NCBI GenBank assembly: GCA_963813535.1
Contig: CAWEZH010000002.1
Span: forward strand, 800,001 to 864,000
Source of the DNA: an uncultured Chloroflexia bacterium
GTDB taxonomy: Bacteria; Chloroflexota; Limnocylindria; Limnocylindrales; CSP1-4
Direction of reading: 5' to 3'
DNA length: 64,000 bases
This document shows, one piece after another, positions 36,026-41,959 of the stretch; the first letter of the stretch is position 1, and each line of letters opens with the position of its first letter. A model generated the notes under the pieces. It saw only the letters and a list, made by a program, of their open reading frames with translations. It was not told where the DNA came from and made no database searches. The position numbers were made by a program, and so were the translations under genes.

Positions 36026-37159
36026 TCAGTCGTTGTAGAGACGTTCCTCGATCAACTTCTCCTGCACGGTCCGACCGTTCGGGTCGAAGCAGGAGAACTC
36101 GAAGTGCTTCTCGAACTCGAGGTCCACGTTGTCCTGGCCACCACGGTTCTTCTCGACCGACACCACGACCCAGTCCCGGAAGCGCTGCGCCTGGTACGGA
36201 TTGAACTCGATGTTGACCTTGGCGACGATGTGGTACTTCTCGTTCAGGATCAGGATGATGTCGGCCTCGTAGTTGATCGCCGACGAGCCGCGCAAGTGGA
36301 AGTTGCGCAGGCGCGAGGCCTTGAGGCCCTCCTTGTCGGCCGCCACGATCGACACCATCGGGACGTCCTCGGACAGCGCGATGTCCTTGAGGCCGTTGAC
36401 GATGAAGGTGACCTTCTCCGACTCGTTCTCCGGCTCGGGGACCTGGGGCACCTTCTGCATGTAGTCGACGAAGACGACGAGTCGCCGGTCGCCCGAGAGC
36501 GCGCGATGCTGCTGGACGAGCTTGCGGACGTTGTCGATGGTGCTGGCGGTCTGCGAGCCGCGGAGCAGGAACAGGTTCTGCCCGTAGCGCGCGATGCGAT
36601 CGAGCGACGGCCGGAGACGCGGGTTGTTGGCGAGCTGCGGGCTCGCGGCACCCTCGGCCATCCACGTGCCGAGGATCTCCTTGCGCACGTCCTGGATCTT
36701 GATCGCGCCGGTCTTGTGGGGCAGGTGCGCCAAGGCCGACTCCATCGCGATGAGGCGATTCATCAGGTACGCCTCGTCGTGCTCGAAGCACAGGTAGAGG
36801 ACGTTGGCCTGCCCGCCCGACGCGATGTTGCGCGCCATCTGGAGCGCCATCGTCGTCTTGCCGGTGCCCTGGGCGCCACCGATGAGCAGCAGCTCGCCGG
36901 CTCGCAGCCCGGTGCCGATCGTCTTGTCGAGGGGGGTGAAGCCCAGTGGAACGGGCTGGTACTCGGCTAGGTTGCCGGTCGTCACGCGCTCGTTGAGGTC
37001 GACGAGCACGTCGAGCGCAGACCTCGGCGCCATGCTCCCGTTGTCGGTATCGAGCCGCCACCCACGCGCGGCGGGCGCAGGCGCGACGTTGGCTTCAGTT
37101 TCGAGATCGGTGCTCACGCGGTCGGATCCTCCCCGGAGGGCGGCGCTCTTGGCGCTCAT
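36026..37159 (-). CDS. Stand-alone DnaB-like (SF4/RecA-fold) ATPase, C-terminal domain only
   Basis: GF..LD, GELLLIGGAQGTGKT, VDYMQ, LRGSSAI.YEAD, VEKNRGG; no DnaB N-terminal domain. Confidence 0.8.
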   Translation of the reverse strand: MSAKSAALRGGSDRVSTDLETEANVAPAPAARGWRLDTDNGSMAPRSALDVLVDLNERVTTGNLAEYQPVPLGFTPLDKTIGTGLRAGELLLIGGAQGTGKTTMALQMARNIASGGQANVLYLCFEHDEAYLMNRLIAMESALAHLPHKTGAIKIQDVRKEILGTWMAEGAASPQLANNPRLRPSLDRIARYGQNLFLLRGSQTASTIDNVRKLVQQHRALSGDRRLVVFVDYMQKVPQVPEPENESEKVTFIVNGLKDIALSEDVPMVSIVAADKEGLKASRLRNFHLRGSSAINYEADIILILNEKYHIVAKVNIEFNPYQAQRFRDWVVVSVEKNRGGQDNVDLEFEKHFEFSCFDPNGRTVQEKLIEERLYND

Positions 37160-37195: not shown

Positions 37196-38620
37196 TCACC
37201 CATCCGTACTGCGCCGGTCCGGACCTGTCTCATCGAGAGCGGCGATCTCATCGAACGTGCCGACGATCGTCCGGATGGCGCCCTCGTAGTTCCGGAGGTC
37301 GAACCACTCGTTCGGCGCGTGGGCGAGGTCGTTCGGCTGGGTGAAGCCTTCGAGCACGACCGGCAGGCCCAGGATCGCCTGGAAGCTGGCGGCGATCGGG
37401 ATCGAGCCACCGGAATTGATGAGGACGGGTGCGCGACCGAATACCGCCTCCAGGGCCCGCGCCGCCGCACCGACGAACGGGTGATCGATGGGTGTCCTGG
37501 TGGCACGACCCATCCCCAGCGGGGTGACGGTGACGTCGACACCGGGCGGGGCGATCTCCTCGACGAAGGCCTTGAACTTCTCGAACACGTCATTCGGTTC
37601 CTGGTCGGCGACGAGTCGCGTACTGATCTTCGCGTGGGCGGTCGCCGGGATGATCGTCTTCGAGCCTTCGCCCTGGAAGCCACCCCAGATGCCGTTGACG
37701 TCGAGCGTCGGCCGAACCGACTTCCGCTCCAGGGTCGAGTAACCCGACTCACCGACCAGAGCAGGTACGCCGGTCTCGACTCGGAACGCCTCTTCATCGA
37801 ACGGCAGCGCAGCGATGGCCTCCCGCTCGGAATCGGTCGACGCGACGACGTCGTCGTAGAAGCCCGGGATGCGGATCCGACCGTCCGCTCCCTTCAGCGC
37901 AGCGATGATCTGGGCGAGGGCGACCACCGGATTGGCGACGGCGCCTCCGTAGCTCCCCGAATGGAGGTCGATCGCGCCGAGGCGGACGTCGATCTGCGCA
38001 TACATCAGGCCGCGCAGCGAGACCGTGATCGCCGGGACGTTGCCCTCGAAGAAGCCCGTGTCGCTGATGATCGCGGCGTCGGCACCCAGGCGTTCACGGT
38101 TGGCCGTCAGCCATGGATCGAGGTGGACGCTCGAGCTCTCCTCCTCGCCCTCGAAGACGTACCGGACGTTGACGGGCAGGCTGCCGCGGGTCGCGAGCAG
38201 GGTCGCCGCCGCGACGACGTGGGCGTGGATCTGGCCCTTGTCATCGGCCGAACCCCGACCGATGAGCCGCTCGCCATCGACCACGGGCTCGAACGGCTCC
38301 GTGCGCCACTCGTCGAGGGGGTCGACGGGCTGGACGTCGTAGTGACCGTAGACGATCACCGTGGGCGCGCCCTCGGCGTGGAGCCAGTCGCCGTAGACGA
38401 TCGGGTGGCCGCCGGTCTCGCTGACATCGACGTTCTCGATACCGGCGGAACGGAGCTCGTCGGCGAGCCACTCGGCCGCGCGACGGACGTCGGGAGCGTG
38501 CTCGGGCAGGGCCGAGATGCTCGGGATGCGGAGGAACGCCTTGAGTCGCTCCAGGCGCTCGTCGCGGTGCGCGTCGAGGTACGACTCGAGCTCGGCAGGG
38601 TCAGCGATACGGTCGGACAT
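37196..38620 (-). CDS. M20 family dipeptidase
   Basis: YGHYDVQP, GRGSADDKG, EGEEE, DLHSG, HAPNE. Confidence 0.92.
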   Translation of the reverse strand: MSDRIADPAELESYLDAHRDERLERLKAFLRIPSISALPEHAPDVRRAAEWLADELRSAGIENVDVSETGGHPIVYGDWLHAEGAPTVIVYGHYDVQPVDPLDEWRTEPFEPVVDGERLIGRGSADDKGQIHAHVVAAATLLATRGSLPVNVRYVFEGEEESSSVHLDPWLTANRERLGADAAIISDTGFFEGNVPAITVSLRGLMYAQIDVRLGAIDLHSGSYGGAVANPVVALAQIIAALKGADGRIRIPGFYDDVVASTDSEREAIAALPFDEEAFRVETGVPALVGESGYSTLERKSVRPTLDVNGIWGGFQGEGSKTIIPATAHAKISTRLVADQEPNDVFEKFKAFVEEIAPPGVDVTVTPLGMGRATRTPIDHPFVGAAARALEAVFGRAPVLINSGGSIPIAASFQAILGLPVVLEGFTQPNDLAHAPNEWFDLRNYEGAIRTIVGTFDEIAALDETGPDRRSTDG

Positions 38621-38684
38621 GGGCCGGAAGTCTATCGGCGGGCGCCGCGGGGCGTTGAGTCAGTGGTAAGCGTTCGCCTCCACG

Positions 38685-39392
38685 ATGTCGTCCGTGGCCG
38701 AGTCACGGATCTCCCGCGCGGATCGGCGGGCGAGGACCATCGGCGAACGCGTCGGCTTGGAGTTGCGCCAAGCGCGACTCATCGCTGGACTCACCCTCAC
38801 GCGGGTGGCAGGTGCCGTTCGCCTGTCGGCGAGCGAGGTCAGCCGGATCGAGCGCGGTCGTGCCGCCTGGGTGGATGTGCCCACGCTCGCCCGACTTGCG
38901 GCGGTCGTCGGGCTCGACCTTTGGGTGCGCCTCTACCCCGGCGGGGAGCCCCTGCGCGACATGGCGCACCTCGCTCTCACCGATGCCTTTCGCGCGATGG
39001 TCGGGCCGGGGCTGATCGTCCGGGCCGAGGTCCCGATCGGGGATCCACGTGACCTGCGCGCGTGGGATCTCACTCTCACGGATCGACGATCCGGGTGCTG
39101 CGGGGTCGAGCTCGAGACCCGGCTGGTCGATGCTCAGGATCAGGCACGTCGAGTAGCGCGCAAGGCCGGCGATTCCGGATCCGAGCGGGTCCTCCTGGTC
39201 GTCGCTGACAGCCGAGCCAACCGGGCTGCCGTCCAGGCCGCGGCGCCCCTGCTCTCAGCGACCTTCGCGATCGACGATCCGGCGGCCTACGACGCCCTGG
39301 CTCGGGGTGACGTGCCACCGCGGGACGCGCTCATCCTTGTGAAGGTGCCGCGGCCGCGCCGGAGGCACCCATTGCCGTCGCACGGCAGCTGA
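38685..39392 (+). CDS. XRE-family HTH protein fused to a PD-(D/E)xK-like nuclease-fold domain
   Basis: LRQAR..AGLT..VA..VRLS.SEVSRIERG HTH, then EV...RAWDL...VELETRL. Only plus-strand gene in a long minus-strand tract. Confidence 0.7.
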   Translation: MSSVAESRISRADRRARTIGERVGLELRQARLIAGLTLTRVAGAVRLSASEVSRIERGRAAWVDVPTLARLAAVVGLDLWVRLYPGGEPLRDMAHLALTDAFRAMVGPGLIVRAEVPIGDPRDLRAWDLTLTDRRSGCCGVELETRLVDAQDQARRVARKAGDSGSERVLLVVADSRANRAAVQAAAPLLSATFAIDDPAAYDALARGDVPPRDALILVKVPRPRRRHPLPSHGS

Positions 39393-39629
39393 CGACGCGT
39401 TCGGCCTCGTTAGCGTCGTCCTTTGCCGCACCACGGTAGAAACACGCTCCGGTTGCCGCTCCACGGCATGCTAGCGGGCATAGCGAGCCACCGGCGTCGC
39501 CAGCTGCCGCCCCACGGCAACGACGGCCAGTCTCACGGACACAGCGGTCGATCGTTGCCGCCCCACGGCCGGTCAGGCGGCACTCCACGGCAATGCAGGC
39601 GGCGCGGCCGCCGGCCGGCGCCACGGCGC
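39372..39629. repeat. Array of 17-bp palindromic repeats TTGCCG-CNCCA-CGGCA(A) with unique spacers
   Basis: Copies start at 39372, 39423, 39453, 39504 and 39555, with degenerate copies at 39577 and 39613. Spacers between the first five copies are 34, 13, 34 and 34 nt. Confidence 0.8.
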
Positions 39630-39663
39630 GACGCAGGCGGCACGGCCACAGCCCCGGAATCGA

Positions 39664-39692
39664 ACGAGCGGGCCGGAGTTCGGCCCGCTCGT
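39664..39692 (-). terminator. Hairpin, probable ftsH terminator (possibly bidirectional)
   Basis: Perfect 12-bp stem ACGAGCGGGCCG-gagtt-CGGCCCGCTCGT about 60 bp after the ftsH stop; weak U-tract. Confidence 0.65.
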
Positions 39693-39751
39693 CGCGGCGT
39701 ACGTGTTCTGGAGGCCCTTCGACGCCGTGGTGGCGCCGGATCAGCAGCCGG

Positions 39752-41659
39752 TCAGGCCGGCTGCGGGTTGGGCTCGGGGATCGGCTGTCCTGGTCCGATG
39801 ACCGATGGCACGCCGCTGTCGGTGGACTTCGGTGGCAGGTCCGTGAAGAGCGTCTCGAACCCTTCGGCGTCGACGGTCTCCTCGGCCACGAGCTTCTCGG
39901 CAAGGGCCACGAGGCGGTCGCGGTGGGTCGTCAGGACCTCCGTCGCTCGCTCGTACGCCTTGTCGATGATGGCGCGGACTTCCTCGTCGATCTGCTTCGC
40001 GATCTCGTCGCTGTAGTTGCGCTGCTCGCCGATCTCGCGGCCGAGGAAGACCAGCTCGTCGCGCTTCCCGAAGGACAGCGGGCCGAGCTTGTCGCTCATG
40101 CCGAACTCGGTGACCATGCGCCGCGCGAGGTCGGTCGCCTTCTCGATGTCATTGCTGGCACCGGTCGTGGTGTCTCCGAAGATGAGTCGTTCGGCGACAT
40201 TGCCGCCGAGCAGGCCCGCGATCTTGTCCTCGAACTCGGTCTTGGACTGCAGATAGCGGTCCTCCTGGGGCAACGCCATCGTATAGCCGAGGGCCATGCC
40301 GCGGCTGATGATCGTCACCTTGCTGACCGGGTCGCACTTCGGCAGGATCCGCTGGACCACGGCGTGACCACCCTCGTGGTAGGCGATGATCGCCTTCTCG
40401 GCATCCGAGATGACGCGTGACTTGCGCTCCGGTCCGGCCACGATCCGCTCCAGGGCCTCCTGGAACTCGGACATGCCGATGACCTTCTTGTTGCGACGGG
40501 CCGAGAGGATCGCCGCCTCATTCACGAGGTTGGCGAGGTCGGCGCCCGAGAAACCCGGCGACTGTCGCGCGACGCCGGCGACGTCGACGCCCTTGTCGAG
40601 CGGCTTGCCCTTGGTGTGCACGTTCAGGATCTCGACACGACCCTTCATGTCCGGGCGGTCGAGGATGACCTGGCGGTCGAAGCGGCCGGGCCGCAGGAGC
40701 GCCGGATCGAGCACGTCGGGCCGGTTCGTGGCTGCGACGACGATGACGTTCGTGTTCGTATCGAAGCCATCCATCTCGACGAGGATCTGGTTGAGGGTCT
40801 GCTCGCGCTCGTCATGGCTGCCGCCCAGGCCGGCGCCGCGCTGGCGTCCGACCGCGTCGATCTCGTCGACGAAGACGATGCACGGCGAATTGCGCTTGGC
40901 CTGGTCGAACAGGTCGCGGACGCGGCTGGCGCCGACGCCGACGAACATCTCGACGAACTCCGAGCCCGAGATGCTGAAGAACGGCACGCCCGCCTCACCG
41001 GCGACCGCGCGAGCCATCAGCGTCTTGCCGGTGCCCGGAGGGCCGACGAGCAGCACGCCACGCGGGATGCGCGCGCCGAGCGAGTTGAACTTCTCGGGGA
41101 ACTTCAGGAACTCGACGACCTCCTGGAGCTCGGTCTTGGCCTCGTCGACGCCGGCCACATCGGCGAACGTCACCACGGTCTTGTTGCCGAGGAACATCCG
41201 CGCGCGGCTCTTGCCGAACGAGAGGGCCTGGTTATTCGTGCCCTGCGCCTGGCGCATCATGAAGAAGATGAAGCCGCCGATGATCAGCAGTGGCAATACG
41301 GCGGTGAGCAGCAGGCCCAGCCACGACGTGTCGGGCGCGGGGGTCGCCTGGAAGATGTTGTCCGGCAACGGCTTGCCGCCCTTGTCGGCGGCCGCCAGCA
41401 TGTCGGGGAACACCTGGGTCAGGACCGTGGGGACGATGACCGTATAGGTGGTGGGCGGTTGGTCGTTCCGTTCGACCGTCAGCGTCGTGCCCTGCTGGGT
41501 GACCTTGGCGATCTTGCCCTGGCTAACCTCGGCCAGGAACTGGGAATAGCCGGTGTTGGTCGGCTGGCCTGTGGTCGTGATCCATGTGAACAGCAGTGCT
41601 GCCGTGCCGACCACAAGCACGAGCATCACGATGCCGTTCCGGAAGAACTTGGGGTTCAA
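39752..41659 (-). CDS. ftsH: ATP-dependent zinc metalloprotease FtsH
   Basis: Two TM helices, [26 protein letters not shown]; TTG start with GGAGG SD. Confidence 0.97.
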
Positions 41660-41884
41660 CGAGAAGCCTCCGGGTGAAGTGAGCGACCACGAAGCGCCGC
41701 CACGTGTCGCGAGTATACCGTCGAGGGCCCGCCAGACCCCCTGACCGAGGTCATGCCCTCGATCATCCCTACGGACGATCGCAGCCGACGGATGGCGACG
41801 GCAGCGAACGTCAAGAAATCGAAACGAGTCCGCGATCGATCGTCGGGCCGGGGAGACGCCGACGCGTCGCGGTGTGACGAGGCG

Positions 41885-41959
41885 TGGTAGCGGAGGGCGG
41901 ATTCGAACCACCGGCCAAGGGCTTATGAGTCCCCTGCTCTACCACTGAGCTACTCCGCC
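41885..41959 (-). tRNA. tRNA with CAU anticodon (elongator Met favoured; Ile2 not excluded)
   Basis: GGCGGAG TAGCTCAGTGGTAGAGC A GGGGA CTCATAA GCCCT TGGCC GGTGG TTCGAAT CCGCC CTCCGCT ACCA. G1-U72 is paired, so not initiator; CCA is encoded. Confidence 0.93.

Follow-up and report, generated by a model that had tools for sequence, protein, structure and literature searches.

The window analysed here, a stretch of 64,000 nucleotides of Chloroflexota DNA, carries on its plus strand (38685..39392) a gene for a 235-aa protein that combines an XRE-type helix-turn-helix (HTH) domain with a domain of the PD-(D/E)xK nuclease fold, and the last codons of this gene run into an array of short palindromes. 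The protein probably recognises these adjoining palindromes. Gene and array are read here as a partnership of the REP/REPIN-RAYT kind, that is, of repetitive extragenic palindromes (REPs) with REP-associated tyrosine transposases (RAYTs), in which the partner is the HTH-PD-(D/E)xK protein and acts on double-stranded DNA, a reading that we hold at slightly better than even odds (about 0.55). It is likely a new kind of repeat-and-enzyme partnership, resembling REP-RAYT but with an unrelated enzyme. The reading draws on the anatomy of the array, the class-specific linkage of genes and palindromes, their co-occurrence across genomes, the covariation of recognition helix and half-site, the spacing lattice, the fold and the predicted dimer, and from these we infer that the protein binds and cleaves DNA and causes mobility. 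An earlier inspection of the window by sequence alone (the original prediction) had pointed out the gene and its array and had offered three explanations, namely an RNA-guided system, a REP/RAYT-like element driven by a PD-(D/E)xK protein and a set of phased HTH binding sites.

A composite palindromic element

Palindromes matching the 15-mer core TGCCGCNCCACGGCA with at most two mismatches are found at 39373, 39424, 39454, 39505 and 39556. Site 1 (TGCCGTCGCACGGCA, 39373..39387, plus strand) overlaps the last codons of the gene, which encode P-S-H-G, and ends 2 nt before the stop codon. It is followed on the same strand by site 2 (TGCCGCACCACGGTA, 39424..39438), site 3 (TGCCGCTCCACGGCA, 39454..39468), site 4 (TGCCGCCCCACGGCA, 39505..39519) and site 5 (TGCCGCCCCACGGCC, 39556..39570), the last standing at the start of a partial further unit. 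The start-to-start spacings of these five good sites are 51, 30, 51 and 51 bp, as in the original prediction, and the five palindromes listed there are all present, the 15-mer cores lying one base inside the 17-mers of that list, together with two degenerate copies at about 39577 and 39613. The degenerate copies belong to a tail (39577..39652, plus strand) in which the half-sites CACGGCAA and CCACGGCG are accompanied by a direct repeat of 27 nt (39590-39616 and 39628-39654, 78% identical); comparable tails at two other loci (L047 and L050; L and G numbers denote loci and genomes) are short tandem repeats. Matches to TGCCGCNCCACGGCA in the window number 7 against 2.23 expected, a count reached by 1 of 100 shuffles. 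The 11-mer core CCGCNCCACGG has 42 matches on both strands of the 3.28-Mb genome, with 4 of them falling within 135 bp here, for which the chance estimate is ~4e-8.

As far as the sequence goes, sites 1 to 4 are one copy of a composite palindromic element of ~147 bp (the P1 element, full copy at 39372..39520, plus strand), and site 5 with the tail is a partial further unit. Taken with its right flank, site 1 is an inverted copy of site 4 taken with its left flank, over 27 nt that are 85% complementary, and a single strand of 39368-39524 gives one long hairpin when folded (dG -44.8 kcal/mol, z -3.8, with 0 of 200 shuffles as good). The layout, site-36-site-15-site-36-site, is shared by 15 dispersed clusters from five related genomes, in which the entire ~147 bp, owing to conserved flanks (site + GCAGGCGAC ... 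GTCGCCTGC + site), form one imperfect palindrome. The "spacers" in the window are thus diverged halves of such an element, and not the three unrelated sequences that they had been taken for. At one orthologous locus (L048) three to four 50-bp units are duplicated in tandem together with their spacers, which argues that the spacers belong to the element and are not acquired sequence.

This anatomy bears directly on the idea of a CRISPR-like or otherwise RNA-guided array, in which the repeats would be processed to guides and the spacers taken from invaders. Regular short palindromic repeats with non-identical spacers are what such an array would look like in the window, but spacer 3 repeats spacer 1 in inverted orientation, the L048 and P2 arrays (the latter described below) duplicate whole units with the spacer included, the same layout is met at many loci and the repeat measures no more than 15-17 nt. 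A scan of 16 proteins encoded nearby (within ~12 kb) showed no cas domain, the whole genome not having been searched for cas, and no transposase or RAYT domain either, in agreement with the original prediction, and Rfam gave no match at E <= 1 in 38000-40500. With spacers that belong to a repeated element, as its diverged halves or as tandem copies, and with no cas genes near, an RNA-guided system is hardly credible here. For annotation the case is a warning that regular palindromes with "unique spacers" beside a nuclease gene need not be RNA-guided.

Three paralogues and three palindrome classes

Three genes of the family are found in the host genome (100, 45 and 40% identity), and each of them adjoins one array of a palindrome class of its own. 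Four copies of GGTCAC-N3-GTGACC (P2) lie downstream of paralogue 2 and three copies of TGGAAC-N7-8-GTTCCA (P3) upstream of paralogue 3. Genome-wide there are 7 arrays of P2 and 5 of P3, with ~25 and ~15 sites, respectively, and 1 of P1, the gene-linked one. The ten orphan arrays are all intergenic according to filtering by open reading frames (ORFs) and third-position GC (GC3), a procedure used in place of strand calls by GC periodicity, which misjudged the family gene itself. Five of the ten begin 11-29 bp past a stop codon, and two (P2_c and P2_g) are in divergent intergenic regions, where promoters would lie.

A fourth candidate class at C2:1129712 turned out to be a coding Pro/Asp/Thr repeat, and other high-scoring gaps were coding repeats too, so that three genes and three classes remain. 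In simple scans this Pro-, Asp- and Thr-rich coding repeat (G000:C2:1129650-1129960, …CCCGATCCGACGCCGGATCC…) passes for a palindrome array; the DNA is 70% GC, and simple k-mer repeat finders run on whole loci were too noisy.

Co-occurrence of gene and palindromes

Six orthologues of the window gene (57-84% identity), located by sequence search with a narrowed protein alignment, occupy the same ftsH site in other assemblies. The 51/30/51 layout is kept beside five of the six, and beside the sixth (L047) there is one site followed by a 16-17-bp tandem repeat. The five other genomes that have a P1-type gene contain 27-35 matches each to the pattern TSYCGNNCCACGRSA, against 2-5 for the reversed control, and these form 3-6 clusters in each genome away from the gene, with spacings of 51, 30 and 81 bp. 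An orthologue of >50% identity is present in only 2 of 30 other same-genus genomes (G425 and G429). Twelve same-genus genomes that lack one have 4-23 matches to TSYCGNNCCACGRSA each, and in 11 of these no two matches are within 200 bp of each other, the exception being G432. P1 clusters are accordingly found in 6/6 genomes with a P1-type gene against 1/12 same-genus genomes without it (Fisher p 4e-4), counts that overstate independence because the compared genomes are related, which must be held against the reading. The motif is not scattered independently of the gene, an outcome that would have told against the original prediction: in the host genome it is unscattered, and in the relatives it is scattered together with the gene. 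In more distant members of the family the linked palindrome is dispersed too, with 7 matches in G213 and 10 in G196 and none for the controls; those of G196 have extended flanks in common and are paired as inverted doublets ~115 bp apart. Five same-genus genomes, among them some with P2-like genes of ~66% nucleotide identity, contain 0-6 unclustered matches to the P2 pattern, which is uninformative about linkage.

The family itself extends well beyond these genomes. A profile of the C-terminal domain, run against 1.84 billion proteins, matched 1369 cluster representatives (clustering at 50% identity) with E <= 0.001 and 891 with E <= 1e-10, the typical member being ~217 aa long with the C-terminal domain at residues 88-217, so that the system would be a widespread and unannotated one. 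In a sample of 401 genomes of the phylum there are 37 with a match, the host genome included, with up to 7 matches per genome, and all 37 belong to two families of one class (f1, 21/23; f3, 15/16). Arrays adjoining homologues, which the original prediction had led one to look for, are present at part of the family loci, 7 of 32 by a strict palindrome-array test and 13 of 32 by repeat excess in a flank (z >= 4; 28 of 271 intergenic gaps of the host genome show the same), and are missing from the rest.

These figures leave some room for the view that the neighbourhood is coincidental, the repeats being generic REP-like sequences made by other machinery or by replication slippage, and the HTH gene merely sharing hot spots that are prone to repeats. 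Repeat excess is after all found in 10% of host intergenic gaps, adjacency holds for under half of the family loci, and both the gap between the M20 peptidase gene and ftsH, where the window gene lies, and a convergent site at C2:1542837 hold unrelated inserts in different genomes. Coincidence is nevertheless rather improbable given the match of three classes to three genes in one genome, the co-occurrence in 6/6 against 1/12 genomes and a recognition helix that varies with the half-site. It also sits poorly with the overlap of site 1 with the last codons of the gene, the P[SPR]HG C-terminal tail being present in 9 of the 29 homologues listed in the alignment.

Probable recognition of duplex DNA, and helical spacing

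Half-sites beside the orthologues vary symmetrically on both arms (TGCCG/CGGCA, TCCCG/CGGGA and TCTCG/CGAGA), and the start of the recognition helix, which in the window protein is S48-A-S-E-V-S-R-I-E56 within the HTH domain, varies with them. S-A-S-E goes with TGCCG (4 genes), S-T-S-E with a hybrid site, S-R-S-E with TCCCG and S-P-A-E with TCTCG, residue 49 tracking half-site positions 2-3. At L048 the palindrome is perfect over 13 bp and has one central base, an arrangement better suited to a protein dimer than to a hairpin loop. Two distant members, L006 (G285) and L049, both have S-P-A-E and TCTCG/CGAGA pentamers with the half-sites in opposite arrangement, CGAGA-A-TCTCG in L006 and TCTCG-N5-CGAGA in L049.

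Measured from centre to centre in 17 arrays that represent 7 classes, 32 spacings with values of 30, 41, 50-52.5, 61-63, 70-73.5, 83-84.5 and 93 bp fit a period of 10.6 bp with R 0.87, where the 95% point of the null is 0.49 and 0 of 2000 random sets were as high. The helical repeat of DNA is 10.6 bp, so neighbouring sites face the same side, and the whole-turn spacing suggests that dimers would sit on one face of the DNA in mutual contact. The phased HTH sites proposed at the outset are in this sense also supported, with seven classes on the ~10.6-bp lattice and a recognition helix that varies with the half-site.

An HTH protein with a PD-(D/E)xK fold

The N-terminal part of the protein (aa 23-78; 38751..38918, plus strand) is an HTH_31/HTH_3 domain according to Pfam (HTH_31, E 1.6e-10, 41.6 bits against a cut-off of 27; HTH_3 also matches), the AlphaFold2 model and the structure search. 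The full-length model, made from 58 homologues, has a mean predicted local distance difference test score (pLDDT) of 91.9, and its HTH domain is matched by ClgR (3f51_A, Z 10.9, root-mean-square deviation (rmsd) 1.9, 65 aligned) and C.BclI (2b5a_A, Z 10.3). Pfam has no match to the C-terminal part; NCBIfam, PADLOC and PHROGs matched the HTH part alone, with no curated family over the C-terminal domain, and a profile search of PDB sequences likewise gave matches to the HTH part alone. Since HTH proteins also filled the Foldseek list for the full-length model, the C-terminal domain was folded alone (pLDDT 92.8, predicted template modelling score 0.87).

The secondary structure of this domain (aa 88-223; 38946..39353, plus strand; assigned from fold searches on the domain model) fits the alpha-beta-beta-beta-alpha-beta core of the PD-(D/E)xK superfamily, and nearly all of the 50 structural matches listed are PD-(D/E)xK nucleases. 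XisH (2okf_B, Z 10.0, rmsd 3.0, 107 aligned) is the top match, and NucS (2vld_B, Z 9.4), AF1548 (1y88_A, Z 9.2), Can2/Card1 (Z 8.1), Hjc (Z 7.2) and TnsA (1t0f_A, Z 5.8) are among the others. Foldseek gave weak E-values (best 9.9e-3) and again a list of nucleases of this fold. The combination of XRE HTH and PD-(D/E)xK-like domains in the original prediction is therefore supported by the fold searches, including those on the C-terminal domain modelled alone. E115, D128, D149, Q151, R155 and K160 are invariant in the family and E142 is nearly so, D128 and E142 being located at the strands expected for PD-(D/E)xK catalytic residues. The invariance holds in a family some of whose members share as little as 34% identity, which is the pattern expected of a working active site, and catalysis by this domain is plausible. 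The dN/dS of the window gene against the six orthologues is 0.13-0.36.

As a homodimer the protein scored 0.70 in structure prediction against 0.00 for the best of 3 controls. Among proteins whose solved structures are pairs of one chain, 20 of 30 came up to this mark, and among those solved as single chains 1 of 23 did. At least 69% of contacts are common to the runs, with a partner pLDDT of at least 77 and an interface formed by aa 8-45 and 61-90; the pass may be due to likeness to solved XRE dimers.

A protein of this kind could also be a transcription factor or a nucleoid-organising protein, its nuclease fold an inert dimerisation or sensor module and the phased clusters platforms that serve the host as roadblocks, terminators or insulators, which ordinary duplication and selection would have spread with no activity of the protein involved. 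The classic domain of repressors is the XRE HTH, a ~10.6-bp lattice is what cooperative binding to duplex DNA typically shows, the ExK motif lacks its lysine, P2_c and P2_g are in divergent promoter regions and the P3 array is upstream of the start of its own gene; the modest copy numbers and the persistence of clusters without the gene in G432 would also fit. We regard such a regulator as unlikely, if worth keeping in view, as half of the orphan arrays start just past a stop codon and not at promoters, arrays come and go between close relatives with different classes at the same intergenic site, and identical tandem units point to recent amplification. The invariant residues are those that a working active site would leave, and in 32 family loci no conserved partner or regulated neighbour gene was found. 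A replication-terminator or fork-barrier role, based on the common orientation of the sites, was considered and dropped.

Turnover of the arrays

Two arrays of the host genome are made up of identical 72-bp units in tandem. The convergent site that holds a P2 array in the host genome (C2:1542837-1543126) is empty (13-24 bp) in three same-genus genomes, and elsewhere it contains another palindrome class (CCAAT…ATTGG type; G409, L065), 88-bp tandem units (G405, L066) or a gene (G411); several repeat classes are, by this comparison, competitors for the same intergenic sites. Two P1 arrays of G425 are solo sites in the host genome, with junctions exactly at the site edges, and a third place is empty. 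As the filled and solo alleles join at site edges, target duplication is here indistinguishable from recombination between sites.

In the mechanism that we propose for the REP-like partnership, a homodimeric XRE-HTH would read the 15-17-bp sequence T(G/C)(C/T)CG-N2-CCA-CG(A/G)(G/C)A on double-stranded DNA, each paralogue having its own palindrome class with one cluster of it beside the gene. The nuclease domain would cut or nick at or between synapsed sites, leading to duplication, deletion and occasional new loci, and clusters would expand by tandem duplication of site-plus-spacer units and contract to solo sites.

The same components could be arranged as a single-gene addiction element, in which a selfish site-specific nuclease is sequestered by its own array and loss of the cassette frees the protein to cut weaker sites. 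The gene stands alone with no partner gene, it encodes a nuclease fold with invariant acidic residues, the array abuts it, and the inserts lie beside essential genes (ftsH, an FtsH-like gene for paralogue 2 and, read by eye, a sigma factor gene in 6-7 loci). The idea is entirely speculative and seems very improbable: G432 has lost the gene yet survives with sites, many family members have no adjacent array, and no methylase, immunity or restriction partner gene was found among the neighbours within ~12 kb.

Comparison with known repeat-and-enzyme systems

REP/REPIN-RAYT is to our knowledge so far the main example in bacteria of a persistent, vertically inherited partnership between a repeat population and an enzyme, and how its repeats spread is still debated. 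Of the explanations offered by the original prediction, a REP/RAYT-like element with a PD-(D/E)xK protein fits best, given class-specific dispersed palindromes, co-presence of gene and element and no RAYT gene. The likeness extends to short imperfect palindromes dispersed in intergenic DNA (P2 and P3 in the host genome, P1 in relatives), to inverted doublets (G196) and clusters able to form long hairpins, to a single-copy partner gene beside its own repeat type (here at 7-13 of the 32 family loci) and to the vertical inheritance of the gene at a fixed locus. Passages of one report (PMC3337134) describe RAYTs as single-copy genes flanked by REPINs, each RAYT with its own REPIN type, and describe three distinct RAYTs in one genome, that of P. 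fluorescens SBW25; the host genome likewise has three very different partner genes, each with its own class.

The systems differ first in the enzyme, since the partner here is an XRE-HTH and PD-(D/E)xK protein and not the HUH/Y1 transposase by which REP/REPIN-RAYT is defined. No match to Y1_Tnp (PF01797) or RAYT was found in the host genome, which is 92.9% complete, in a scan whose control was detected in 6 of 14 known genomes. The sites have the look of dimer targets in duplex DNA, spaced on a helical-turn lattice, and not of single-strand hairpins, they lie on one side of the gene only, and the host belongs to the Chloroflexota, not the Proteobacteria. P1 matches in relatives (27-35) are in the tens and not in the hundreds, where PMC2817692 puts REP copy numbers at usually >100 per genome. 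The same source describes bacterial interspersed mosaic elements (BIMEs) as regularly spaced palindromes, partly in alternating orientation, in composite intergenic clusters, which is the organisation seen here; unit sequences and host differ, and in the present case the class is tied to an adjoining HTH-nuclease gene and the spacing quantised at ~10.6 bp. The statement that the module fits no named class was too strong in that the module works like REP, BIME and REPIN systems, although it lacks their defining enzyme.

Other systems share single features. XRE repressors and the C proteins of restriction-modification systems have in common with the window protein the HTH fold, the predicted dimer and a 15-17-bp palindromic target, but here the window sites are not at the gene's own promoter, clusters of 3-8 sites are dispersed, there is a nuclease-fold domain and no methylase or restriction partner was found. 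The sopC centromere of F lies next to sopB, the gene of an HTH protein, and is an array of units each with a palindrome bound by that protein. The succession of HTH-protein gene and palindrome units is the same as in the window, where, unlike in F, no ParA/SopA- or ParM-type NTPase gene is adjacent, the arrays are chromosomal, dispersed and polymorphic, and the protein has a nuclease fold. TnsA of Tn7, XisH and the YhgA/Rpn-like PD-(D/E)XK_2 putative transposases share the catalytic fold; the present protein has no sequence match to those Pfam families, and it differs in its XRE HTH at the N-terminus and in having no TnsB-like or recombinase partner nearby. In passages of PMC4853749, putative YhgA transposases are said to contain homologues of the hupL MITE (a miniature transposable element with inverted repeats), and insertion sequence (IS) elements of the PD-(D/E)XK type are called poorly understood. 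An IS element with MITE derivatives would have its transposase gene bracketed by the terminal inverted repeats that the MITEs carry, and target-site duplications; the sites here are on one side of the gene. No link between PD-(D/E)xK proteins and REP-type repeats was found in searches of the open-access literature.

Several observations weigh against the REP-like partnership. The palindrome sites lie on one side of the window gene only, and in the host genome the P1 gene has no P1 cluster beyond the gene-linked one. Per-class copy numbers are in the tens, and adjacency is not universal in the family (7/32 loci by the strict test). The canonical (D/E)xK lysine is replaced, position 144 being E here and E, D or V in the family; with E144 the arrangement presumably resembles the D...ExE sites of the BamHI type. 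In the closest relative, G432, whose ftsH is 92% identical, there are 4 P1 clusters but no P1-type gene, and a solo site without a gene is all that lies in its M20-ftsH gap, so clusters can exist without the gene, at least for a time. Some genomes have P2-like genes (~66% nucleotide identity) and no GGTCAC arrays, which would fit changed specificity. Near-identical copies of the element were not found at different loci; growth therefore looks local, and recent transposition is unsupported.

A fuller version of the REP-like reading, which we put forward more tentatively and at somewhat less than even odds, is that the palindromes are an undescribed class of intragenomic elements in Chloroflexota (Limnocylindrales-like soil bacteria) with a co-evolving, single-copy XRE-HTH-PD-(D/E)xK nuclease as partner on double-stranded DNA. 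Dimers would synapse sites placed at whole turns and cut or rejoin the DNA so as to duplicate, delete and occasionally seed units, and the whole would be a counterpart of REPIN-RAYT that arose independently from another enzyme superfamily and has a helix-to-half-site code. If this is true, the repeat-enzyme lifestyle evolved more than once, here with an unrelated enzyme and duplex-DNA sites, there is a tractable specificity code (residue 49 against half-site positions 2-3), and an unannotated family gains a function.

The locus and its surroundings

The window gene is, as first noted, a lone plus-strand gene between two minus-strand genes identified from the ORF list and Pfam, those of an M20 peptidase (37196-38620) and ftsH (39752-41911). 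Where other genomes have an empty or solo-site allele between M20 and ftsH, the window has an insert of ~1.0 kb at approximately 38645..39652 that comprises the promoter region, the gene and the palindrome array. Its limits were set by eye, with an accuracy of ~5 bp, from the common flanks AGTCTATCGGCGGG on the left and CCCCGGAATCGAACGAGC on the right, the alleles used being the empty sites of same-genus genomes and the solo-site allele of G432. In 12 of 15 same-genus genomes M20 and ftsH are 81-180 bp apart, which leaves no room for the gene; in the remaining three, the gap holds other genes in two and the locus is split over contigs in one. None of 10 genomes of the sister family has a gap long enough for the gene. 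The gap of G411 contains an ECF-type sigma factor gene and a second ORF, that of G403 a gene for a 737-aa membrane protein, and the M20-ftsH gap is, on these comparisons, a hot spot for unrelated inserts.

The 64-bp gap upstream of the gene (38621..38684, plus strand), common with the divergent M20 peptidase gene, contains GCGTTGAGTCAGTGGTAAG, a motif also present upstream of orthologues (upstream flanks of L047-L052 compared), and we infer it to be the promoter region; no palindrome site was found in it. The motif GCGTTGAGTCGGCGGT occurs in one copy upstream of the window gene (38657-38675) and in three tandem copies upstream of the 84% orthologue (L047:1860-2000), and may be a promoter or a second binding motif. 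The third-position GC of the window gene, ~0.78-0.81 against 0.85-0.93 in its neighbours, is weak, which fits a fast-evolving or foreign gene; the gene fails the GC3 gene filter, and an antisense ORF at 38706-39254 passes it. Contigs from RNA libraries of two different metatranscriptomes match 39413-39561 (151 nt, 5 differences) and 39007-39193 (187 nt, 7 differences) and were not counted as evidence of transcription, as DNA carry-over is possible and the contigs give no strand.

In other parts of the family, paralogue 2 and its array (G000:C1:186227-188287; L002/L057) are turned towards the 3' end of a gene for an FtsH-like protein (M41 peptidase), and another orthologous group (6-7 loci) has a recurring convergent neighbour, read by eye as a sigma factor gene. 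Convergent placement beside essential genes recurs in the family. Two genes upstream of the window gene, a 377-aa DnaB_C/KaiC-like P-loop protein is encoded at 36026-37159 on the minus strand and has no relation to the finding.

The palindrome array stops short of the ftsH terminator, as the original prediction had it. The terminator is a perfect 12-bp hairpin (39664-39692, minus strand) that is outside the insert and conserved in empty alleles. In G432 (L103) and G407 (L037) an extra stretch of ~130 bp, absent from the window, lies between the ftsH stop codon and the terminator; it has a long inverted repeat of its own (…CAGCGCAAGG…GAGCGCACCCC-AGGTGCGTGAGCG…) and looks like another small inserted element.

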